64,000 nt of DNA from Candidatus Limnocylindria bacterium (GCA_046262115.1 JBHENJ010000080.1:7941-71940), one strand, 5' to 3'. Numbered from the stretch's first letter, positions 2,841-52,957 are shown. Made by a program: numbers and translations. The notes: generated from the letters alone by a model not told the origin.

Positions 2841-3613
2841 GCGAGCTCGTGGGAGGGCGCCGGCCCGTGGCCGAGGCGCTCGCGAGCGGCCGGCGCGCCG
2901 AGCGGCTTATCCTCGGCGCGAACAGCCGCCGCCCGAATCCCGAGCTGCGCTCGATCATCACCGAGGCCAGGCGGAGGGGGATCCCCGTCGAGGAGCGCGA
3001 CTCCGGGACGCTCCAGCGCCTCGCCGGTTTCGACGGGCACCAGGGCGTGCTGCTGGAGGTCGCCGACCGCCGCTACAGCGACCTCGCCGAGATCGTCGCG
3101 CTCGCCGTCCGCCGCAACGCCGAGCCGTTAGTTATCGTCCTCGACTCGCTGCAGGATCCGGTCAACTTCGGGTCCCTGCTCCGTGCGGCCGAGGCGGCCG
3201 GAGTGCACGGCGTCGTCTTCCCAGAACGCGGCGCCGCTCCGCTCTCACCCGCCGCGGTGAAGGCCTCCGCAGGGGCCAGCGAGCACCTGCTCCTCGCCCG
3301 CGTGGAAAGCCTGAGCGCGTCGCTCGACGAGCTGCGCGCGCGGAACGTCCGGATAGTCGCCGCGGACCAGGACGCCACCGCGACCGCTTGGGAGACCGAT
3401 CTCTCGGGCGCAGTCGCGGTCGTCGTGGGCGCTGAGGGCGCCGGCCTGTCGGCGGGGACCCGCCGCCGTTGCGACGAGCTGGTCCGGTTTCCGATGGCGG
3501 GTGCCATCGGCTCGCTCAATGCCGCGACCGCGGGCGCGCTCCTCGTCTTCGAGGTGGTCCGGCAGCGGTCGGGAGCGGCTCGCGCGCTAGAATCGGCCCC
3601 GGCGCCGACGTAG
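2837..3613 (+). CDS. rlmB: TrmH/SpoU-family 23S rRNA 2-prime-O-methyltransferase (RlmB-like)
   Basis: SpoU motifs (LDSLQDPVNFGSLLRAAEAAG, VVVGAEGAGLS, SLNAATAGALLVFE); GTG 2837 overlaps the ispDF stop; alternative GTG at 2849. Confidence 0.8.
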   Translation: MSELVGGRRPVAEALASGRRAERLILGANSRRPNPELRSIITEARRRGIPVEERDSGTLQRLAGFDGHQGVLLEVADRRYSDLAEIVALAVRRNAEPLVIVLDSLQDPVNFGSLLRAAEAAGVHGVVFPERGAAPLSPAAVKASAGASEHLLLARVESLSASLDELRARNVRIVAADQDATATAWETDLSGAVAVVVGAEGAGLSAGTRRRCDELVRFPMAGAIGSLNAATAGALLVFEVVRQRSGAARALESAPAPT

Positions 3614-3676
3614 CTCAATTGGCAGAGCAGTGGTTTTGTAAACCACCGGTTCTCGGTTCGACCCCGAGCGTCGGCT
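3604..3676 (+). tRNA. tRNA-Thr (anticodon UGU)
   Basis: Cloverleaf folds by eye: acceptor gccgacg/cgtcggc, D-stem gctc/gagc, anticodon stem gtggt/accac with loop tttgtaa, T-arm ctcgg-ttcgacc-ccgag; CCA not encoded. Confidence 0.9.
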
Positions 3677-4248: not shown

Positions 4249-4334
4249 GGGTAGGTTGAGCAGGTGGTGAGCTCCGCTGACTGTAGATCAGCCGTCTTTC
4301 GACTGTGGGGGTTCGATTCCCTCCCTGCCCACCA
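4249..4334 (+). tRNA. tRNA-Tyr (anticodon GUA), long variable arm, CCA encoded
   Basis: Acceptor gggtagg/cctgccc (one G-U), anticodon stem gctga/tcagc with loop ctgtaga, long variable arm, T-arm ggggg-ttcgatt-ccctc, 3-prime ACCA. Confidence 0.9.
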
Positions 4335-4343
4335 ACACGACGG

Positions 4344-4419
4344 GCCCACATAGCTCAGCAGGCAGAGCACTTCCTTGGTAAGGAAGAGGTCTCCGGTTCG
4401 AACCCGGATGTGGGCTCCA
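4344..4419 (+). tRNA. tRNA-Thr (anticodon GGU), CCA encoded
   Basis: Acceptor gcccaca/tgtgggc, D-arm gctc-agcaggca-gagc, anticodon stem cttcc/ggaag with loop ttggtaa, T-arm tccgg-ttcgaac-ccgga, 3-prime TCCA. Confidence 0.9.
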
Positions 4420-5817: not shown

Positions 5818-5893
5818 AGGGGTGTAGCTCAATTGGTAGAGCACTGGTCTCCAAAACCAGCGGTTGTGGGTTCGAGTCCCGCCGCCCCTGCCA
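5818..5893 (+). tRNA. tRNA-Trp (anticodon CCA), CCA encoded
   Basis: Acceptor aggggtg/cgcccct, anticodon stem ctggt/accag with loop ctccaaa, T-arm gtggg-ttcgagt-cccgc; classic rpmG-tRNA-Trp-secE position. Confidence 0.9.
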
Positions 5894-8427: not shown

Positions 8428-8829
8428 ATGGCAACCAAGACGCTCGACAAGCAGGCGATCCTCAAGGCGATCGACAACATGACCGTCCTCGAACTCTCCG
8501 AGCTGGTCAAGGCCTTCGAGGAGCGCTACGGCGTCACCGCCGCGGCACCGGTGGCGGTCGCGGCCGCACCCGCCGGAGGCGGTGATGGGGCGGCGGCAGC
8601 GGCGCCGGCCGAGGAGCAGACCGAGTTCAACGCGGTGCTCACGGACGTCGGCCCGAACAAGATCCTGGTCATCAAGGCCGTCCGCGAGCTGACCGGGCTC
8701 GGCCTCAAGGAGGCCAAGGACCTCGTCGACGCGGCGCCGAAGCCGGTCAAGGAGGGCGTCCCGCGCGAGGATGCGGACGCCGTTCGCGAGAAGCTCGCCG
8801 AGGCGGGAGCGACGGTCGAAGTCCGATAG
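8428..8829 (+). CDS. rplL: 50S ribosomal protein L7/L12
   Basis: Ala-rich hinge plus C-terminal domain [25 protein letters not shown]...[22 protein letters not shown]. Confidence 0.95.
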
Positions 8830-8913
8830 CCGGCAAGAAGCGCCCGGAGCTGCTATACTCGCCGCTCCCTAGCCGTGCCGTGTCCGCCTTTCCACCTGCC
8901 CCAGGAGACCTGA

Positions 8914-12321
<3,408 letters not shown>

Positions 12322-45889: not shown

Positions 45890-47100
45890 GCGCGGCGATC
45901 GTCGCATCCAGCTCTCGAAGCCGTCACCGCGCGTGGATCGAGGTGGACCTCGCCGCAGTCGCGAGGAACCTGGGTGTGCTCCGGCGGCTGGGTCGCGAAG
46001 GCCAGCAGGTCATCGGCGTCGTCAAGGCGAACGCCTACGGCCACGGTGACGTCGAAATCGCGCGAACGCTCGTCGGCGAGGGTGTCGATCGCCTCGCGGT
46101 CGCTACCGTCGACGAGGGGATCCGTCTTCGCCAGGCGGGGATCGACGCCCCCATCCTGGTTCTATTCGAGATGGATCGCGCCGAGGCCGCCCGTGCGGTG
46201 GCCGCGCGGCTGGAGGCGACGATCTTCACGGATCGCGGGGTCGCCGCGCTCTCGCATGCGGCTACCGCCCGCCGGACGGTCGCCGTTCACGTCAAGGTCG
46301 ACACCGGCCTCGGACGCCAGGGCGCGGACCCGGCCGACGCCCTCGCACTCGCCACGTCTGCAGTCTCGCGGCCCGAGATCGAACTGGCCGGGACGTACAC
46401 GCACCTGGCCGTGCCCGGCGAGGACGAGGCGTACACCGATCTGCAGCTGGTCCGATTTGGGCAGGTGCTCGACGCGCTCCGGGGCTCCGCGATCGACCCA
46501 GGGCTCGTCCACGTCTCTGGCACCGGCGGCGTGTTGTCCGGCGTCGGTGGATTCGCCGATGCCATCCGCCCGGGACTCGGCCTCTACGGCATGGCGCCGT
46601 CCTGGGCGAGTGCCGACGATATCGGCCTGCGCCCGGCGCTCAGTCTTCGCTCACTCCCACTGCGGATCTTCGATCTCGCCGGTGGCGAACCGATCGGCTA
46701 TGGCCTCCGCTTCCGTGCCGGCCGCCGCTCGCGGATCGCAACCCTGGGGATGGGTTACGCCGACGGCTGGCCGCGCGTCCACGCCAACAACGGTGTCGTC
46801 CTCGTACGAGGGAAGCGCGCGCCGATCGTGGGCGCCATCTCGATGGACGCGCTGACCGTCGACGTCACCGACGTCGACGGCGTTACCGAGGACGACGAGT
46901 TCGTCCTGATCGGGTCGCAGGATGGCGAACGGATCACGGCGGACGAGGTCGCCGCCCAGCGCCGCACGATCAACTACGAGGTCACGACGGCGCTCGGCAT
47001 CCGGCTCTCGCGCATGCCCCTCGCCTCCGGGCGCCGAGATGGGCCGATCGCCCGCGTGCCGTCGGCAGCGATTCCGGGTGCCGCGCATGGCGGAGTCTGA
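45886..47100 (+). CDS. alr: Alanine racemase
   Basis: PLP-site VVKANAYGHG, C-terminal domain; GTGA overlap with nnr; only the 3-prime part of the long ORF 44740-47100. Confidence 0.9.
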   Translation: MSAAIVASSSRSRHRAWIEVDLAAVARNLGVLRRLGREGQQVIGVVKANAYGHGDVEIARTLVGEGVDRLAVATVDEGIRLRQAGIDAPILVLFEMDRAEAARAVAARLEATIFTDRGVAALSHAATARRTVAVHVKVDTGLGRQGADPADALALATSAVSRPEIELAGTYTHLAVPGEDEAYTDLQLVRFGQVLDALRGSAIDPGLVHVSGTGGVLSGVGGFADAIRPGLGLYGMAPSWASADDIGLRPALSLRSLPLRIFDLAGGEPIGYGLRFRAGRRSRIATLGMGYADGWPRVHANNGVVLVRGKRAPIVGAISMDALTVDVTDVDGVTEDDEFVLIGSQDGERITADEVAAQRRTINYEVTTALGIRLSRMPLASGRRDGPIARVPSAAIPGAAHGGV

Positions 47101-47362
47101 GCGGGTGGAACCAGACGTCGGTGCGCTCGCCCGGGCGATCGAGCGGCGCGGTCTTGCCGCGACCGCGCTGCTCCTTCTCGATGCGCACCGCCCGTACCGA
47201 CCGCTCGTCGCTCACGCGGCGACGTTCCTTGCGCCGGTCCTGCGGCCGCTGGTGGGCGGCCCATTCGCGTCCGCGCGCGACCTCCTGAGCTCCGAGGAGA
47301 ACATCGACCGGCTGGTCGCATCACTCGAGTCGGGCCGCGCCGAGGGGCGCGCGGATGCCTGA
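47087..47362 (+). CDS. Hypothetical small protein (91 aa), first gene of the novel operon
   Basis: ATG 47087 overlaps the alr 3-prime end by 14 nt; G/C-rich third positions; no recognisable domain. Confidence 0.5.
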   Translation: MAESERVEPDVGALARAIERRGLAATALLLLDAHRPYRPLVAHAATFLAPVLRPLVGGPFASARDLLSSEENIDRLVASLESGRAEGRADA

Positions 47363-48203
47363 CCTCGGGGAGCTCGTCGGCGGCGTCGTACGCTTCCTCG
47401 GCGACTCGCTCTCGGCGTCGCGACTTGCCGTCGGCGTCGGTCCCACGCTGGCGCTCCTGACCGTGATGCTCGTGCTGCTCTATCTGCTTGCCCGGCCGAC
47501 TGCGCGGTGGCGCGGGCGCGACCTCGGCCGTCTCCAGGGCGTGGTGAGGACGATGGCGCTGGCCGCCGAATCCGGCGGCACCGCCTCCTTCTCCCTCGGA
47601 ACCGCGGGGGTCGTCCGTCCGGCGGCGGCCGTCGACCGACTGCAGACCCTCGCCGCGCTGCCGGTCCTCGGGCACGTCGCGAGCGCCGCGGCGCGCGGCG
47701 GCGTGCCGCTGATGGTGACCGCGAACGACGCCGTGGCGGTCGAGCTCGCGCGAGCTGTGCTCGACGAGGCGTTTGCCGCGACAAGCACCAGCGAGCGCGC
47801 TCGACGCGCGCGAGCGGAGCACGTGGGCGACGGCAGGGCAAGCGCCGCGGGTCGCTCGCTCGCGCGACCCGCCGGCGCGGGCAACACGACGCACGTGCTG
47901 GGTGGCCTCAGCGAGGAGGCGCCCGCGTTGCTCACCGGCGAGGTCGACGGTGCCGCGACGACGACGTTCGGGACCGCGACGCCCGCGGAGGCAGTGTGGG
48001 TCCTGCTCCTCGGACAGGGTGCGGTCATCGGCCCCGAGCTCTACAGCGCCGCGAGCGCGGTGCTCCCCGCGACGGACGAACGCGCCGCGGTCTTCGCCGT
48101 CAACCGTCTCATCTGGGTGGCGCTGGCGCTCCTGGCCGGCGGCTCGCTTCTCCGAGTGCTGGGCATCTTCGACGTCGCCGGCTTCGTCCTCGGGCGCAGC
48201 TGA
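47355..48203 (+). CDS. Hypothetical bitopic membrane protein (282 aa)
   Basis: ATG overlaps the upstream stop by 8 nt; TM helix near the N-terminus (PTLALLTVMLVLLYLLA) and another near the C-terminus; clear G/C third-position bias across the frame. Confidence 0.6.
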   Translation: MPDLGELVGGVVRFLGDSLSASRLAVGVGPTLALLTVMLVLLYLLARPTARWRGRDLGRLQGVVRTMALAAESGGTASFSLGTAGVVRPAAAVDRLQTLAALPVLGHVASAAARGGVPLMVTANDAVAVELARAVLDEAFAATSTSERARRARAEHVGDGRASAAGRSLARPAGAGNTTHVLGGLSEEAPALLTGEVDGAATTTFGTATPAEAVWVLLLGQGAVIGPELYSAASAVLPATDERAAVFAVNRLIWVALALLAGGSLLRVLGIFDVAGFVLGRS

Positions 48204-48209
48204 CCTTCG

Positions 48210-48824
48210 ATGCGGCGTGGGATCGTTCCTGCCCTGGTCATTGGTGCGGGGCTCGTCGTGCTGGTCGACTACCTCGTCGTCAACCCGAGCGTCGATGTCG
48301 TCGGCGGATACCTACTCAGCTACCTGATCGCGCTGGCGGCCGCAGCCGGCGTGGCCGGCGGTGTGGAGGTGGTCGCCGCCCAGGTCATCCACCTTCGTGA
48401 GCGACGCCGCGATCCGACCGCCGCGGTCGCGACACTGGTCGGGTTCCTGCTGGCCGTCGGGGCCGGCTTCTATCCGGGCTCCGCCGGCGCGTCCGATCCC
48501 GCGATGCGGTGGATCGTCGCCGCGATGCTGCTTCCCCTCGTCGCCTCACTCTTCTCGCTGCTCTTCTTCTTCATGCTCGCCGCCGTCTCGCGCGGACTTC
48601 GATTGCGCGGACGGGAGACGACCGTGATCGTGGCGGCCGCCGCGGCCATGCTGGTGCTGCTCCTTCCGCTGGGAGGTGACGTCGGGCGCTCGCTCGCCTC
48701 CGCTGCCGGCTGGACCCTGGACGTGCCGGTCGGTGCCGTCTTCCGCGGCCTTCTCATCGGTGTCGCGATCGCCACGTCGGTGGCGGCCGCAAGGACGCTG
48801 CTCACGCCGGCGGGGGAGGGGTGA
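48210..48824 (+). CDS. Hypothetical polytopic membrane protein (204 aa, about 5 TM)
   Basis: 6-nt gap from the upstream gene; hydrophobic throughout. Confidence 0.6.
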   Translation: MRRGIVPALVIGAGLVVLVDYLVVNPSVDVVGGYLLSYLIALAAAAGVAGGVEVVAAQVIHLRERRRDPTAAVATLVGFLLAVGAGFYPGSAGASDPAMRWIVAAMLLPLVASLFSLLFFFMLAAVSRGLRLRGRETTVIVAAAAAMLVLLLPLGGDVGRSLASAAGWTLDVPVGAVFRGLLIGVAIATSVAAARTLLTPAGEG

Positions 48825-49606
48825 ACCTCGCCGCGGTGCGGCTGGCGCTGCTCGCGGCGGTCGCCGGTGCCGTTCTCCTGACATCGGCCGGGACGTACCT
48901 GCCTCTGGGGGACCGCGGGCGGGCCGCCGCGGAGGATTTCCTCGGCGTCGTTGGTTCGCTGCCGGCCGGGTCGAGCGTCCTGGTCGCGTTCGACGCGGAC
49001 GCCGGCACCTATCCGGAGATCGTGTACGCCACCCGGAGCGTGATCCGCCGGTTCGAGCTCGCGCGGCACGAGATGGCGTTCGTGAGCTTCACGCCTGAAG
49101 GCAGGGCCCTCGCCGTCGGCGAGCTCGACCGCCTCAGTCGAGACGCAGACCTCGGTGACGCCCAGATCCGGGATCTCGGGTACCGCGCCGGGGCCGAGGC
49201 AGCGCTGGCGCGGTCCATCGGCGAGCTCGACGTCGCATCGTTCGATCTCATCCTCCTGATCGGCGGGATCGACCTCGGGCCGCGAGCGTGGGTCGAGCAG
49301 GTCCAGCCCAGGCTGTCCGACGAGGCGGAGCCGCAGATGGTGGCGATCGCACCATCGTTCCTGCTTCCCGAGCTCGAGCCCTACCGCGCGTCGGGCCAGC
49401 TCGCCGCGGTGCTCGACAATCCGCGTGACGCGCTTACGCTCGCGGGCGCAGCCGCGCCGGACGACGTCGACTCCGCTTTAAGGCTGCCGTCCGAGGCCGC
49501 GATCCTCGTCGGCCTGCTCGGCGCGCTCGGGATCCTCGTGGCGGCGTTGATCCGCACCGGGTCCGAACGCGTCGGCGTCCGGGGGAACCGGGGCGCCGGA
49601 CGGTGA
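48821..49606 (+). CDS. Hypothetical membrane-anchored protein (261 aa; N- and C-terminal TM helices, soluble middle)
   Basis: GTGA overlap with the upstream stop. Confidence 0.55.
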   Translation: MNLAAVRLALLAAVAGAVLLTSAGTYLPLGDRGRAAAEDFLGVVGSLPAGSSVLVAFDADAGTYPEIVYATRSVIRRFELARHEMAFVSFTPEGRALAVGELDRLSRDADLGDAQIRDLGYRAGAEAALARSIGELDVASFDLILLIGGIDLGPRAWVEQVQPRLSDEAEPQMVAIAPSFLLPELEPYRASGQLAAVLDNPRDALTLAGAAAPDDVDSALRLPSEAAILVGLLGALGILVAALIRTGSERVGVRGNRGAGR

Positions 49607-50247
49607 GCGGGTTCTTCGGCGACGACCTCGCGGGCACGCTCGGAACGTGGCTCGCGGCAGCGATCACGCTGTCCGTGTGGGCCTACCTGGTGGGCGAGCG
49701 CCGCGCCTTCGCGTACGCGCAGCACCTGCTCGCCGGGCTCCTCACAGGCTACGTCGTCGTGATCTCGATCCGCGAGGTGCTCGTTCCATTCTTCCTCGAC
49801 CCGCTGGTGCGTGATCCCCGCGGTCACGCCGCGCTGTGGCCGGCCATCCTCCTCGCGGGCGTCGTCGTCGTCGGCCGCTTCCTCCCCCGACCGCTCACGG
49901 CGATCCCCGTCTCGATCCTGGTGGGCGGGACCGCGGCGTTCGCGCTGGCCGGGGCGGTGGTCGGGACCCTCACCCCCCAGCTCGCCAAGGCCATCCTCCC
50001 CGGAGGTGGGAGCCTCCCGGCGCTGGTCGGCGGGGCGGTGTCGGTGGTCATCATGGCGCTCGTCGTCGTCAGCTTCCGCCACGGCGTCGCCGTCGACGGG
50101 TTCGCCGGGCGTGCGTCCGTGGCGGGACGATGGCTCCTCATGGCCGGGCTCGGCGGATGGTTCGGATTCATGCTGCTCGGCCGTCTCGTGCTGGTGATCG
50201 AGCGGATCGGCTTCCTGCTGTTCGAGTGGCTCAAGATAGGTCGATGA
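49603..50247 (+). CDS. Hypothetical polytopic membrane protein (214 aa, about 6 TM)
   Basis: GTGA overlap with the upstream stop. Confidence 0.55.
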   Translation: MSGFFGDDLAGTLGTWLAAAITLSVWAYLVGERRAFAYAQHLLAGLLTGYVVVISIREVLVPFFLDPLVRDPRGHAALWPAILLAGVVVVGRFLPRPLTAIPVSILVGGTAAFALAGAVVGTLTPQLAKAILPGGGSLPALVGGAVSVVIMALVVVSFRHGVAVDGFAGRASVAGRWLLMAGLGGWFGFMLLGRLVLVIERIGFLLFEWLKIGR

Positions 50248-51932
50248 CGCCTACTCCCGCTATCGCGCTGGCTATCGACCACGGGTCAACCTGGACCAAG
50301 GCGTCTGTGATCGGTCGGGTGGCGGGACGCTGGCATGTGGCTGCACACGTCAGCCAGCCGACGGCGTGGGGCGAGGACGAGCTGCTGCGCGCCCTCACCG
50401 CGCGTCTCGCGGCACGGGCCGACCGTCGCTGGACGAGCGCCGTCCCTGCCCTTGTCGGCCGGGCGTCGCGGATCGAATGTCACACGCCGGGACGACCGGG
50501 TCGCATCGGGCTCGCCGCGGTGTCGCGGGACATCTCCGGGCAGACGGCGCGGCGGGCGGCGGAATCGGCGGGCTGGGTCATCGCGGAGAGCGCGACGCTC
50601 GACGACGGCCGCTCGCTGGCCGAGCGTCTGACCGCGCTCCAGGCCGCGGACGTGGATGCGTGGCTCCTCGCTGGTGGCTTCGAGGGCGCGGACGCCGAGC
50701 AGGCGCTCGAGGTGGCCGGCCTCGTCGCTGCGGCTCGCGCGACGGGCACCGGCCCGGTGATCTGGGCAGGCGCCGCGAACCTGGCCGGCGAGGTCGAGGA
50801 GTTGTTCGAGCCCGGAGCGGTCACCGTCGTCGAGAACCCGAAGCCGAGCGCCGACGTGGAGCGGCCGCTCCAGCTCCGCGCGGGATTGGAAGGACTGCTC
50901 CGATTGATCGTGGAGCCGGAGGGCTCCCTGCACCTCGCGCCGACCGCCTTCGGACGCTCCGTCGGCACCGTCGGCCGCATCAGCGGCCTGAACGTGCTCG
51001 GCGTCGACCTCGGCGCGCGCTATGCGACGTGGGCGCTATGCGGGGAGCGCGGCGTCGAGACGCGCGTGCATGCCGAGGGCGGCCTCGGTTCGCCGGCGCT
51101 GGCCGCGCCCGCGATCGCGGGGCGCCTGTCACGCAGCCTGCCGCGCGACGTCGACGAGACGTCGGTCGCGGACACGCTTCAGAACATGCGGACTCGGCCC
51201 GCCGCGGTACCCCAGACGCAGGACGAGATCGCCGTCATGCACGCCGCGGCGCGACATCAGCTCGCGGCGCTGGTCGGCGCGAGTGCCGTGCAGGGAGTCG
51301 ACCTGCTGGTCGGCAGCGGACGCGCGATTGCGGCGTTTCCGCGGCCCGGGCAGGCCGCCGAGCTGCTCGTCGAGGGGATACGGCCGCTCGGCGTGACCCA
51401 GCTCGCGGTCGACGCCGCGGGCGTGCTTGCGCCGCTGGGCTCGCTAGACGACGAGGATCTGGGCGAAGGCGTCGGTGCGCTGCTCGGCGACGCGCTCGCC
51501 CCGCTGGGGACTGCCGTCATCACCCGGGGGGGCAACCCGGGCGACCCCGCGCTGCGCCTATGGCTGAGGCCACTGCCCGCTTCAGGCGGCCGAGGCGTCA
51601 ACGGCGCGGTGCCCGGCATCGGCCACGGCGGCGACGACGATCGCGTAGGCGCCGCGCTCGAGGTCCGCTACGGGCAGCTGCTCATCCTGCCGCTCCCCTA
51701 TGGGCGCCGCGCCGAGGTCCACCTCGAGCTCGAGCCCGGCGTGTCGCTGGGAGCCGCGCGTCGCAGCCGGGAGGTGCGGACGCGCGTCGTCGGTGGCGCG
51801 GTAGGTCTCATCGTCGACACACGCGACATGCCGATCGCGCTCCCGCGTCGTGCCGATGACCGCGAGGCGGTACTTACCTCCTGGCACGAGACGTTCGTTC
51901 GCGAGCACGCGACCGAGCTCCCGCTGCGATGA
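50244..51932 (+). CDS. ASKHA-superfamily ATPase-like protein, MutL/EutA-like (562 aa)
   Basis: N-terminus AIALAIDHGSTWTKASVIG carries the DxGSTxTK phosphate-1 motif typical of glutamate-mutase MutL / EutA-type ASKHA proteins; ATGA overlap with the upstream gene; the upstream part of the 698-aa ORF is antisense/overlapping noise. Confidence 0.6.
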   Translation: MTPTPAIALAIDHGSTWTKASVIGRVAGRWHVAAHVSQPTAWGEDELLRALTARLAARADRRWTSAVPALVGRASRIECHTPGRPGRIGLAAVSRDISGQTARRAAESAGWVIAESATLDDGRSLAERLTALQAADVDAWLLAGGFEGADAEQALEVAGLVAAARATGTGPVIWAGAANLAGEVEELFEPGAVTVVENPKPSADVERPLQLRAGLEGLLRLIVEPEGSLHLAPTAFGRSVGTVGRISGLNVLGVDLGARYATWALCGERGVETRVHAEGGLGSPALAAPAIAGRLSRSLPRDVDETSVADTLQNMRTRPAAVPQTQDEIAVMHAAARHQLAALVGASAVQGVDLLVGSGRAIAAFPRPGQAAELLVEGIRPLGVTQLAVDAAGVLAPLGSLDDEDLGEGVGALLGDALAPLGTAVITRGGNPGDPALRLWLRPLPASGGRGVNGAVPGIGHGGDDDRVGAALEVRYGQLLILPLPYGRRAEVHLELEPGVSLGAARRSREVRTRVVGGAVGLIVDTRDMPIALPRRADDREAVLTSWHETFVREHATELPLR

Positions 51933-52957
51933 CGTCTGCTGTCACCGCACTCGACCACCGCGTTCCGTTCCCACCCAGCGCGCGGATCCTCGTCGCGCCG
52001 GGCGACGAGGTCCGCGCCGACGACGCGCTCGCGACCAGCCGATCGCTCGGTGAGCCGATCGCGGTGCCGGTCGCGGCCCGGCTGCGGTGCGACGCGCGCG
52101 ACGGCGCTCGTCACCTCATCGGACGGCCCGGCGTGACCGTGCGGACGCGAGAGAAGCTCGCGGCGTGGCACGGCCGCGAGGTGCGCAGTCCCGTGGACGG
52201 CCTGCTGATCGGGTACTCGCGGACCGATGGCGTTGCGCTCCTCGCGCCGTTCGGCGGCGAGACAGCCATCGTCGGTCACGTGCGCGGGACCGTCACGGCG
52301 GTCGAGCCGTCCAGCGTCGTCGTCTCGGTGCCGGCGGCGCGCATCGGCGGCGTGCACGCCAGCGGGGACGCAGTCCACGGGGAGCTGATGATCGGCGTGC
52401 GGAGCCCGGCCGACGAGTTGCGTGCTGGCCAGGTGGACGTGTCGGCCACGGGGCGGATCCTTGTGGGCGGGTCGCGCGCATCGGCCGAAACACTCGCGCG
52501 TGCACGGGCGATGGGAATCGCTGGGATCGTCCTCGGGGGCATCCTCGACAAGGAGCTGCGCGACTTCACGGCGATACAGGAACGCCGCGAGAAGATGGGC
52601 GGCCTGACCGGCTCGTTCGCGTTGCTGCTCGTCGAGGGGTACGGCAAGGTCGCGCTCGACCCCGGGCTGTTCGCATGGCTGAGCGACCATCAGGGACACG
52701 AAGCCAGCCTCTTCGCCGGCGAGGGCGTCCTCTATGTGTACGACGCCGCGCCTCCGCCCCCGCGCCGCGTGCCGGCGCACGACGGCGATCGCGTGGTGAT
52801 CCACCGCCGGCCACACCAGGGCAGCAGCGGGCGCGTCGAGCGGGTCTTCGATCAGGTCCACGCGGCGGCGTCCGGGTTGCTGGCGCGACATGCCGTCGTC
52901 GCGCTGGAGGACGGAACCCGTGCGGTCATGCCGCTCGCCAACCTCGAGGCCACGTAG
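51929..52957 (+). CDS. Hypothetical protein (342 aa) with an N-terminal barrel-sandwich-hybrid-like segment and a C-terminal KOW-like motif
   Basis: ATGA overlap with the upstream gene; ARILVAPGDEVRADDAL (hybrid-motif-like) and GDRVVIHRRPHQGSSGRVERV (KOW-like). Confidence 0.55.
   Translation: MTSAVTALDHRVPFPPSARILVAPGDEVRADDALATSRSLGEPIAVPVAARLRCDARDGARHLIGRPGVTVRTREKLAAWHGREVRSPVDGLLIGYSRTDGVALLAPFGGETAIVGHVRGTVTAVEPSSVVVSVPAARIGGVHASGDAVHGELMIGVRSPADELRAGQVDVSATGRILVGGSRASAETLARARAMGIAGIVLGGILDKELRDFTAIQERREKMGGLTGSFALLLVEGYGKVALDPGLFAWLSDHQGHEASLFAGEGVLYVYDAAPPPPRRVPAHDGDRVVIHRRPHQGSSGRVERVFDQVHAAASGLLARHAVVALEDGTRAVMPLANLEAT

Follow-up and report, generated by a model that had tools for sequence, protein, structure and literature searches.

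A seven-gene locus between alr and tsaE in Limnocylindria is a divergent copy of a widespread, two-module, membrane-associated gene set

A block of seven genes (47087-52957, + strand) lies between alr and tsaE in a 64,000-nucleotide stretch of DNA from Candidatus Limnocylindria bacterium (GCA_046262115.1, JBHENJ010000080.1:7941-71940), referred to here at its full length as the window. The block belongs to a very large family and is not a lineage-specific insertion. Its open reading frames (ORFs) are named o1 to o7 in gene order from alr to tsaE. They encode proteins of 91, 282, 204, 261, 214, 562, and 342 residues and contain no internal stop codons. The first, o1 (47087-47362), overlaps the alr stop codon by 14 nt; o2 (47355-48203) overlaps o1 by 8 nt, and o3 (48210-48824) begins after a 6-nt gap. 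The next two genes, o4 (48821-49606) and o5 (49603-50247), each start at a GTGA junction with the preceding gene, and o6 (50244-51932) and o7 (51929-52957) each start at an ATGA junction, so that the spacings from o1 to o7 read -8, +6, -4, -4, -4, and -4 nt. The window is ~72% G+C, and long spurious ORFs are present in all frames. In the seven ORFs, the G+C fraction at third codon positions (GC3) ranges from 0.83, the value for o1, to 0.90, versus 0.49-0.57 at second positions. Homologs of all seven exist in syntenic Limnocylindria contigs and in other phyla, and those of o6 and o7 are also present in a collection of 5.8 billion proteins. The GC3 pattern, the lack of internal stops, and the homologs set o1-o7 apart from the spurious overlapping ORFs. 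The original prediction, made from the DNA alone, had called these seven + strand ORFs at the same coordinates and lengths, with the first overlapping the 3' end of alr, and both calls hold. Its junctions need a small correction: the 8-nt overlap and the 6-nt gap are real, but the 4-nt ATGA/GTGA overlaps number four instead of five.

The longest of the seven proteins, o6, matches the N-terminal half of the Pfam MutL/GlmL family (PF13941) with 86.5 bits (gathering threshold 27) and E = 2e-24; the match covers residues 9-215 and profile positions 2-196 of 450. The canonical o6 homolog aligns with the same profile from end to end (positions 1-450, E = 1e-125). Scores against curated subfamilies are lower. 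Window o6 reaches 38.7 bits with the NCBIfam GlmL model NF040745 (cut-off 475) and 41.5 bits with TIGR01319 (cut-off 204), and the canonical protein reaches 222 and 159 bits, respectively, and 214 bits with Or-4. The canonical protein resembles GlmL and Or-4 over the whole length of these two, below all curated cut-offs. We assign o6 to the ASKHA (actin-fold) proteins of the GlmL/MutL superfamily, on a branch separate from true GlmL, because a full-length PF13941 match is combined with scores below the curated GlmL and Or-4 cut-offs. The protein identical to window o6 is named "glutamate mutase L" at NCBI. A sequence search of the PDB with o6 found no relative.

The canonical o6 family carries all of the ASKHA nucleotide motifs: DCGSTTTK, GVDIGGATTD, and GSGGVLSHAPRR. 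In window o6 the phosphate-1 motif is retained as DHGSTWTKA. The phosphate-2 motif reads GVDLGARYAT versus the canonical GVDIGGATTD, with only D255 and G257 invariant, and the adenosine motif has changed from GSGGVLSHAPRR to GSGRAIAAFPRP, in which only G357-S358-G359 is invariant. Nucleotide binding by the Limnocylindria protein is plausible. Some ASKHA proteins of the PilM/FtsA type bind nucleotide without robust hydrolysis, and by analogy Limnocylindria o6 may do the same. An earlier description of o6 as "ASKHA-fold ATPase-like" is apt for the fold, given the PF13941 match, but needs qualifying for the ATPase, as this lineage retains little of the phosphate-2 consensus of its family and has lost much of the adenosine one. 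Near its C-terminus (window residues ~515-545, GGAVGLIVDTRDMPIALP) the o6 family has the conserved motif GGVVGxIxDxRGRPFxLP, whose similarity to the SH3-like barrel of ribosomal protein eL21 is not significant (E = 0.5). The C-terminus of o6 may be a KOW/SH3-like barrel, as in o7.

The o7 protein consists of three domains: an N-terminal barrel-sandwich hybrid, a central swiveling β/β/α domain, and a C-terminal KOW/SH3-like barrel. A barrel-sandwich-hybrid-like N-terminus and a KOW-like C-terminus had been guessed from the sequence, and both are borne out. The N-terminal domain has the fold class of lipoyl carriers and resembles the N-terminus of RnfC/NqrA, and the swiveling domain structurally resembles the type that is inserted in the ASKHA reactivase DdrA. 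A phosphorelay role for this domain, in the style of phosphotransferase-system or phosphoenolpyruvate-utilizing proteins, was considered and rejected, as no conserved His, Cys, or Asp occurs at or near the equivalent position. There is likewise no conserved lysine at a lipoyl-type hairpin, and the only invariant residues are glycines. The signature motifs of the family are replaced in window o7, and no Pfam or NCBIfam family covers the protein. The smallest product, o1, is a soluble helical protein of 91 residues with no hydrophobic segment at the transmembrane (TM) threshold and no match in Pfam or NCBIfam. With iterated hidden Markov models (HMMs), its family is found directly upstream of o6 at 35 non-Limnocylindria loci, with the consensus PAIxFLESxKPL...FxxPFxQ.

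The remaining four genes, o2 to o5, encode membrane proteins. Window o2 matches Pfam DUF6754 (PF20539) with 30.7 bits (cut-off 27, E = 2e-7). A DUF6754 HMM built from cluster homologs recovers it with E = 2e-64, and canonical o2 matches PF20539 with E = 4.5e-123. Hydropathy places TM segments at residues 24-42 and ~250-275 on either side of a soluble domain of ~200 residues. The first TM segment begins only 23 residues from the start, leaving no signal peptide or FN3 ectodomain, both of which are seen in canonical o2 (translations, and an AlphaFold2 model of protein P0391 with a predicted local distance difference test score, pLDDT, of 73). Two features predict that the DUF6754 domain is cytoplasmic: the loop behind the first TM segment of o2 is basic, and the canonical protein opens with a signal peptide followed by FN3. 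In the P0391 model the canonical DUF6754 core is predicted as six β-α units and is Rossmann-like; no cofactor-binding motif was recognized in o2. Window o2 is only 16-22% identical to homologs in other phyla. It lacks GRATEMGKP, YAESLxLAETG, and CDYTLIGEELYAASAYL, and with them acidic and cysteine motifs that are otherwise strongly conserved. GRATEMGKP does not qualify as a P-loop, since its spacing is wrong and the model puts it in a helix before the first strand.

Both o3 and o5 are polytopic, with ~6 TM segments each by hydropathy, and are linked to homologs in other phyla by phmmer (E = 1e-9 to 1e-21 for o3 and 1e-9 to 1e-22 for o5). The conserved motif of o3 TM4, TMFSLLAFFIASAAYRAFRAR, reads SLFSLLFFFMLAAVSRGLRLR in the window; the canonical o5 motifs FLYKDNPFYKFAEH and FFFSKEHKG are replaced. 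Neither protein has a relative in Pfam or the PDB, and neither window copy contains a single cysteine. The fourth protein, o4 (isoelectric point 4.7), has TM segments at 3-21 and 226-244 flanking an α/β domain of ~200 residues, followed by a basic tail. This domain is predicted to be extracytoplasmic by the positive-inside rule, because DRR precedes the first TM segment and a K/R-rich tail follows the second in homologs. None of 27 members of the o4 family matches Pfam, and no PDB relatives were found. The topologies had been anticipated as bitopic, polytopic, bitopic, and polytopic. This is right for o3 and o5, but o2 and o4 are not simple bitopic proteins, having two hydrophobic segments each, one N-terminal and one C-terminal. 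Duplication of a two-gene unit, with o2/o4 and o3/o5 as paralogous pairs, was rejected on BLASTP and profile-profile comparison (probability at most 3%), and the latter indicates that all seven families are mutually unrelated.

Beyond PF13941 and PF20539, the seven proteins have no significant match in Pfam, NCBIfam, or PADLOC, and PDB sequence searches with single proteins and family profiles of o2-o7 gave no meaningful match. The original prediction could name no family with confidence for any of the seven; this stands for o1, o3, o4, o5, and o7 and fails for o2 (DUF6754) and o6 (MutL/GlmL). Thus the proteins do not each fall into a well-characterized family with an established pathway. A literature search on DUF6754, PF13941, GlmL/"glutamate mutase L," and reactivase/ASKHA, whose coverage left out most subscription journals, returned nothing relevant.

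The set is widespread. An o7 profile retrieves 2127 representatives at 50% identity (E ≤ 1e-3) among 1.84 billion proteins, and the o7 pattern, a narrow alignment of distant o7 relatives, occurs in at least 593 species when one genome per GTDB species is counted. DUF6754 candidates number at least 8000, all 8000 scored being significant. Locus statistics were drawn from the best 80 loci of the o7 genome scan (these and further loci are numbered with the prefix L), which fall in Eisenbacteria, WOR-3, Zixibacteria, Poribacteria, Latescibacterota, Ignavibacteria, Fermentibacteria, Stahlbacteria, Nitrospirota, and others. Single-sequence phmmer searches with the window proteins detect o2-o7 beside o7 homologs, with one marginal match for o1, and iterated HMMs retrieve all seven families at distant loci. 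Turned on the window, the family HMMs recover the seven ORFs (E = 4e-21 to 1e-157) and have no other match in it. Of the loci, 24 are covered far enough to show o1, o6, and o7 collinear on one strand with a full o2-o3-o4-o5; these 24 belong to Eisenbacteria, Fermentibacteria, Latescibacterota, Zixibacteria, Nitrospirota, and unclassified lineages. o6 adjoins o7 in 49 of the 80 loci. Co-occurrence of the seven families, proposed earlier as a check, is therefore confirmed on one strand across several phyla, Ignavibacteria included, and they behave as one membrane-associated set. Two taxonomic labels look wrong: L007, labeled Dormiibacterota, is arranged exactly as the Eisenbacteria loci, and L084 (GCA_013374385.1, labeled Candidatus Methanocomedens) contains a TonB-dependent receptor and ExbBD.

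The usual gene order elsewhere is o0-o1-o6-o7-o2-o3-o4-o5, versus o1-o2-o3-o4-o5-o6-o7 in the window. The additional gene, o0, represents an eighth family of ~150 residues with two TM helices and a C-terminal domain bearing the motif GVLLSPFxKPSRLExFRG. In 30 loci, spread over several phyla, it immediately precedes o1 (e.g. L047 7288-7746 and L027 6948-7403). Pfam gives a weak hint that this C-terminal domain is bacterial-PH-like. The o0 HMM has no match in the window or in the related Limnocylindria contigs L001 and L002.

The genes are inherited as a cytoplasmic module (o0, o1, o6, and o7) together with one or more membrane tetrads, o2-o3-o4-o5. Tetrads occur two to three times in tandem behind a single o6-o7, with o1 first wherever it is detected, in Ignavibacteria (L025 11662-17664), in Zixibacteria (L027 11924-20831, L054 11959-21121, and L082 14792-21125), and in L058 (11664-18480). 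The tandem paralogs are 38-57% identical, and all four genes are copied together, which indicates old, whole-unit duplications. Modules also separate. Fermentibacteria-like contigs carry a lone tetrad in L083 and L084 and a tetrad 7 kb from o6-o7 in L086, and o0-o1-o6-o7 is found with no nearby tetrad in, for example, L020, L031, and L033. In L083 a molybdenum-cofactor riboswitch (1644-1763, - strand) lies upstream of an aldehyde dehydrogenase gene and is unrelated to the tetrad. WOR-3 and Poribacteria have o7 alone, in unrelated contexts. The WOR-3 orphan (L012 7204-14635) sits between a TMEM260-like tetratricopeptide-repeat protein gene and transketolase-ftsE-ftsX-M23 peptidase genes, and the other six families were not found near it; Poribacteria orphans occupy further contexts (L036). 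Since the tetrad is duplicated behind one o1-o6-o7 set and also stands alone, the fixed seven-part stoichiometric complex that the tight coupling had suggested is doubtful.

The source of the cluster is a metagenome-assembled genome of the class Limnocylindria (Chloroflexota), from which proteins identical to o6 and o7 are recorded, and the window copy is a divergent member of the wider system. Three Limnocylindria-type contigs, L001 (2.2 Mb), L002, and L088, encode proteins ~55% identical to those of the window and carry the seven genes between alr and tsaE in the same order and with the same tight spacing. Downstream they share a string of tsaB, rimI, tsaD, ksgA, ispE, glmU, and others. A fourth contig, L087, starts just upstream of o6 and continues with o6-o7 and the Limnocylindria-type downstream string. 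Its "Thermoleophilaceae" label (P0177) is probably a binning artifact, since downstream of the cluster it has flanks identical to the Limnocylindria ones. Protein P0133, labeled "Zixibacteria," also groups by sequence with the Limnocylindria proteins (58% identity). The cluster is thus neither absent nor rearranged in close relatives; its coupling and position are kept at ~55% identity. Two local differences were observed. A Macro-domain gene lies between alr and o1 in L001 (6267-6791), L002 (6270-6800), and L088 (3246-3800) and is missing from the window, where alr overlaps o1 directly. In L002, o4 (8544-9363) is split over two frames by a frameshift, which is either an assembly error or the mark of a pseudogene.

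By sequence, the Limnocylindria proteins are the most divergent members of their families. This copy has lost o0, the FN3 domain, the o6 phosphate-2 consensus, and many conserved motifs. As the variant is well conserved within the class, it is derived and reduced but not in decay.

In the window, Pfam identifies YbbR, GlmM, GlmS, AcpS, Nnr, and Alr upstream of the cluster and TsaE, TsaB, and, further along, GlmU and CNNM downstream, which agrees with the glmM, glmS, and alr genes upstream and the glmU gene downstream that had been named before. The segment 39091-44497 (an ORF of 323 residues followed by YbbR, GlmM, and GlmS) is laid out like the Firmicutes cdaA-cdaR-glmM-glmS arrangement; with Rfam gathering thresholds, no glmS ribozyme came to light ahead of glmS. 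The + strand also has four tRNA genes (3604-3676, 4249-4331, 4344-4416, and 5818-5890), which are distant from the cluster and unrelated to it. A promoter and terminator scan of the window, uninformative at 72% GC, gave no result.

Elsewhere the neighbors differ, and the cluster sits inside housekeeping operons of two unrelated layouts: alr...tsaE here and gcvH-gcvPA-gcvPB...lplA in FCB lineages. The gcvH-gcvPA-gcvPB genes are immediately upstream of o0 in 22 loci of Eisenbacteria, Fermentibacteria, and allies, and a lipoate ligase of the LplA/LipB type is downstream of the cluster in 17 (for example, gcv genes at L047 4130-7312 and the ligase at L015 14489-15232, with ~20 further loci). The eight-gene cluster in these lineages looks as if it were inserted in a glycine-cleavage/lipoylation operon. 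In L056, and apparently in L009, no tetrad intervenes and the ligase follows o7, ~0.9 kb past it in L056. In several diderm lineages a TonB-dependent receptor comes next: it follows in nine loci, almost all of which have a tetrad, and likewise behind the tetrads of L083, L084, and L086, and ExbB, ExbD, or TonB genes accompany it in several. In general, inner-membrane uptake systems are partnered at the outer membrane by TonB systems. Neither the gcv/lplA nor the TonB link is seen in Zixibacteria, Ignavibacteria, Latescibacterota, or Nitrospirota, and no gcv or lplA homolog was detected in the window. The peptidoglycan/UDP-GlcNAc neighborhood on which the original prediction had remarked is therefore genuine in the window and absent outside Limnocylindria, where gcvH-gcvP, the lipoate-protein ligase, or the TonB-dependent receptor take its place. 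Being specific to Limnocylindria, it adds nothing to that prediction's guess of an envelope-associated machine.

Several known systems invite comparison. The accessory proteins GlmL/MutL and Or-4 (PF13941; NF040745, NF040744, and TIGR01319) belong to operons for B12-dependent glutamate mutase or ornithine degradation. They share the superfamily with o6 and, with its canonical form, the actin/Hsp70-type fold class and canonical nucleotide motifs, but o6 has ~100 extra C-terminal residues, no mutase gene nearby, and o7, o1, and the tetrad as partners, and its Limnocylindria form has lost most of the phosphate-2 and adenosine consensus. The sole link to the reactivases DdrAB (PduGH) and EutA is the structure of the swiveling domain, which here resides on a separate protein with barrel-sandwich and KOW domains. 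Pfam and PDB searches gave no sequence match to DdrA or EutA, no B12 client genes are nearby, and the presumed client would be a membrane complex rather than a soluble B12 enzyme. Group II energy-coupling factor (ECF) transporters and ATP-binding cassette (ABC) systems that share MsiK or MsmK also use one cytoplasmic module for several paralogous membrane units, in tandem or elsewhere, and their units likewise combine two polytopic proteins with a protein bearing an externally exposed domain. However, no P-loop, ABC_tran, BPD_transp, ECF, or CbiQ match was found in the seven window proteins, the seven canonical proteins, or o0; the putative energizer has an actin fold, and o3 and o5 are not homologous to ECF-T/S or ABC permeases.

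The resemblance to Rnf/Nqr is limited to the N-terminal fold of o7. The o2-o5 proteins have no Rnf/Nqr Pfam matches. Flavin and Fe-S motifs are absent, o3 shows no homology to o5, and the lack of cysteine in window o3 and o5 leaves no Fe-S site possible there. PilM-PilN-PilO and FtsA offer another parallel, in that an ASKHA protein is encoded with small membrane proteins carrying periplasmic domains. Against this, window o6 has no significant Pfam match to PilM, FtsA, or MreB (canonical o6 has a sub-threshold match to MreB-like_C, 16.3 vs 27 bits), no pilus or divisome genes are adjacent, and the polytopic o3 and o5 have no counterpart. The likenesses to DdrAB, ECF-type transporters, Rnf/Nqr, and PilMNO are architectural only, as the defining features of each are absent. 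As far as the evidence goes, the complete system falls into no known kind, and the window copy is a reduced member of it.

Our best guess, with a probability of roughly 0.35, is a nucleotide-gated transport or transduction unit in which the tetrad most likely carries a small solute through the cytoplasmic membrane. Transport is ranked first because the tetrad has two polytopic proteins together with an external and a cytoplasmic domain, because one module appears to serve several units, and because TonB genes are neighbors. The intact nucleotide motifs of canonical o6 and the DdrA-type swiveling domain of o7 also speak for the proposal. The cytoplasmic module of o1, o6, and o7 would dock on the cytoplasmic DUF6754 domain of o2 and run a nucleotide-dependent cycle of opening and closing, of the type proposed for Hsp70 and for the B12-enzyme reactivases DdrAB, EutA, and GlmL. 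This cycle would drive or gate a conformational change in the tetrad, by which the solute would pass the membrane; a single cytoplasmic module would serve several paralogous tetrads, and the system would be expressed together with housekeeping genes. Limnocylindria would have a stripped-down system whose module may bind nucleotide and gate the tetrad rather than hydrolyze efficiently. A more specific proposal, which we consider rather unlikely as it stands, is an undescribed, phylum-spanning machine in which the GlmL-branch ASKHA protein and o7 power or gate interchangeable tetrads, making the whole a primary-active transporter or a transmembrane transducer with an ASKHA protein as its energy source in place of a P-loop, P-type, or rotary ATPase. 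For such a machine, the two independent housekeeping contexts, alr here and gcvHP-lplA in FCB lineages, hint at lipoate or one of the small neutral amino acids glycine and alanine as a possible cargo.

A number of observations speak against a nucleotide-gated transport unit. There is no direct evidence either for transport or for contact between the modules. No resemblance of o2-o5 to transporter families emerged from Pfam, NCBIfam, or PDB sequence searches, and neither internal 3+3 repeats in o3 and o5 nor homology between the two was detected. We know of no actin-fold ATPase that energizes a transporter, and energy coupling in the window lineage is particularly uncertain because the phosphate-2 and adenosine motifs of o6 are degenerate. 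A conserved phospho-acceptor is missing from o7. For the DUF6754 domain, the second half of the P0391 model has a pLDDT of only ~55, and the FN3 domain swamped both fold searches with canonical o2, so that the core went without a fold comparison. The genomic links may be inherited synteny, as the TonB and gcv/lplA contexts are each confined to a few related lineages. Nor is a ligand suggested by regulatory RNA: in 19 sources, namely the window and 18 loci, none of the clusters has a riboswitch or another element known to Rfam.

Among other explanations, the main rival, possible though we would not bet on it, is that the tetrad functions by itself as a membrane enzyme, channel, or sensor and that o6, o7, and o1 act on it only occasionally, as an ATP-dependent maintenance or assembly factor like GlmL or DdrA. 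The module might, for example, exchange a cofactor or reset an inactive Rossmann-like DUF6754 domain rather than serve as an energizing subunit. The nearest named relatives of o6 are indeed accessory proteins of B12 mutases (GlmL at 222 and Or-4 at 214 bits for the canonical protein), and the six predicted β-α units of the DUF6754 core would suit a client of this sort, as would the occurrence of several tetrads per cytoplasmic module, of lone tetrads, and of a system retained in Limnocylindria despite degenerate o6 motifs. Yet in 24 loci, as in Limnocylindria, the modules adjoin each other on one strand, with tight coupling in the window, an arrangement more usual for subunits than for occasional helpers; o2 has no cofactor motif, and no B12, radical S-adenosylmethionine, or cofactor genes or cobalamin riboswitch lie nearby. 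A different role would have o0, o1, o6, and o7 serve glycine cleavage or lipoylation, for instance by activating or repairing GcvP or GcvH, with the tetrads as a separate function that merely travels along. This is quite improbable. It would account for the gcv genes upstream of o0 in 22 loci and the ligase directly downstream in 17, for L009 and L056, where the ligase comes next after o7 with no tetrad between, for gcv-o0-o1-o6-o7 with no nearby tetrad in L020, L031, and L033, and for the lipoyl-carrier fold class of the o7 N-terminal domain. The linkage is, however, absent in Zixibacteria, Ignavibacteria, Latescibacterota, Nitrospirota, and Limnocylindria and may reflect one ancestral arrangement. 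The window has no detectable gcv or lplA homolog, and o7 has only glycines as invariant residues and no conserved lysine at the lipoyl hairpin. That o6 is a true glutamate mutase L, accessory to a B12-dependent methylaspartate mutase, with the other genes as unrelated neighbors, is hardly credible in spite of the NCBI name and the Pfam MutL match: 38.7 bits for the window protein and 222 for the canonical one compare with an equivalog cut-off of 475, and what constantly accompanies o6 is o7 and the membrane tetrad. Genes for the S or E subunit of glutamate mutase or for B12 binding were not found in the Pfam-annotated 10-kb flanks of the syntenic contigs L001, L002, and L088, in the 9 kb downstream of o6-o7 in L087, or among the checked flanking genes of the window.

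The neighbors of the window copy bring up an envelope function, in which the complex would export, flip, or remodel an envelope component such as a peptidoglycan or polysaccharide precursor through the o4 domain and, in canonical forms, FN3. We judge this unlikely. Besides glmM, glmS, alr, and glmU around the window cluster, it would explain the external FN3 domain of canonical o2, as FN3 domains are common in glycan-binding proteins, and three gene associations: a peptidoglycan-binding M15 peptidase gene between o1 and o6 in L054, a family-2 glycosyltransferase gene between o6 and o7 in L078, and the WOR-3 orphan o7 beside ftsE-ftsX-M23 peptidase. These inserted envelope genes are, however, single cases, and the peptidoglycan context is found in Limnocylindria only, within a long housekeeping string that also holds tsaEBD, ksgA, and ispE; the recurrent neighbors in other phyla are gcvHP, lplA, and TonB-system genes. 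No similarity to MurJ, FtsW, Wzx, ABC exporters, or divisome and elongasome families was found. The carriers also differ greatly in envelope, Chloroflexota being monoderm-like and the FCB-group and Nitrospirota carriers diderm. Because alr and tsaE are contiguous in many Terrabacteria and the block breaks this order, a mobile or defense island inserted between them was considered too, and we give it almost no credence. A PADLOC-DB 2.0 search with 10 proteins (the seven of the window and canonical o6, o7, and o2) returned no match at E ≤ 0.01, the GC content and GC3 of the block equal those of its flanks, and there is no integrase, border repeat, or border tRNA, the only tRNA genes being those at 3.6-5.9 kb. 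The position is also identical in Limnocylindria contigs of only ~55% protein identity.

If the proposed transport or transduction unit is real, a membrane system of seven to eight genes, present in hundreds of species of many phyla, has so far gone undescribed. Its carriers are mostly uncultured lineages of soil, sediment, and freshwater. Pfam has entries for only two of the eight families, one a domain of unknown function and the other under a misleading name, and PDB sequence searches brought up no solved structure related to any of the seven window families; the o6 branch is routinely misannotated as "glutamate mutase L," and the name can be corrected on many proteins. No known transport or transduction machine couples an actin-fold nucleotide-binding protein to membrane tetrads that can be duplicated, and this architecture, if the proposal is true, may represent a new principle of energy coupling. 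The Limnocylindria variant shows which parts are dispensable (o0, FN3, and the phosphate-2 consensus) while the system stays under selection.

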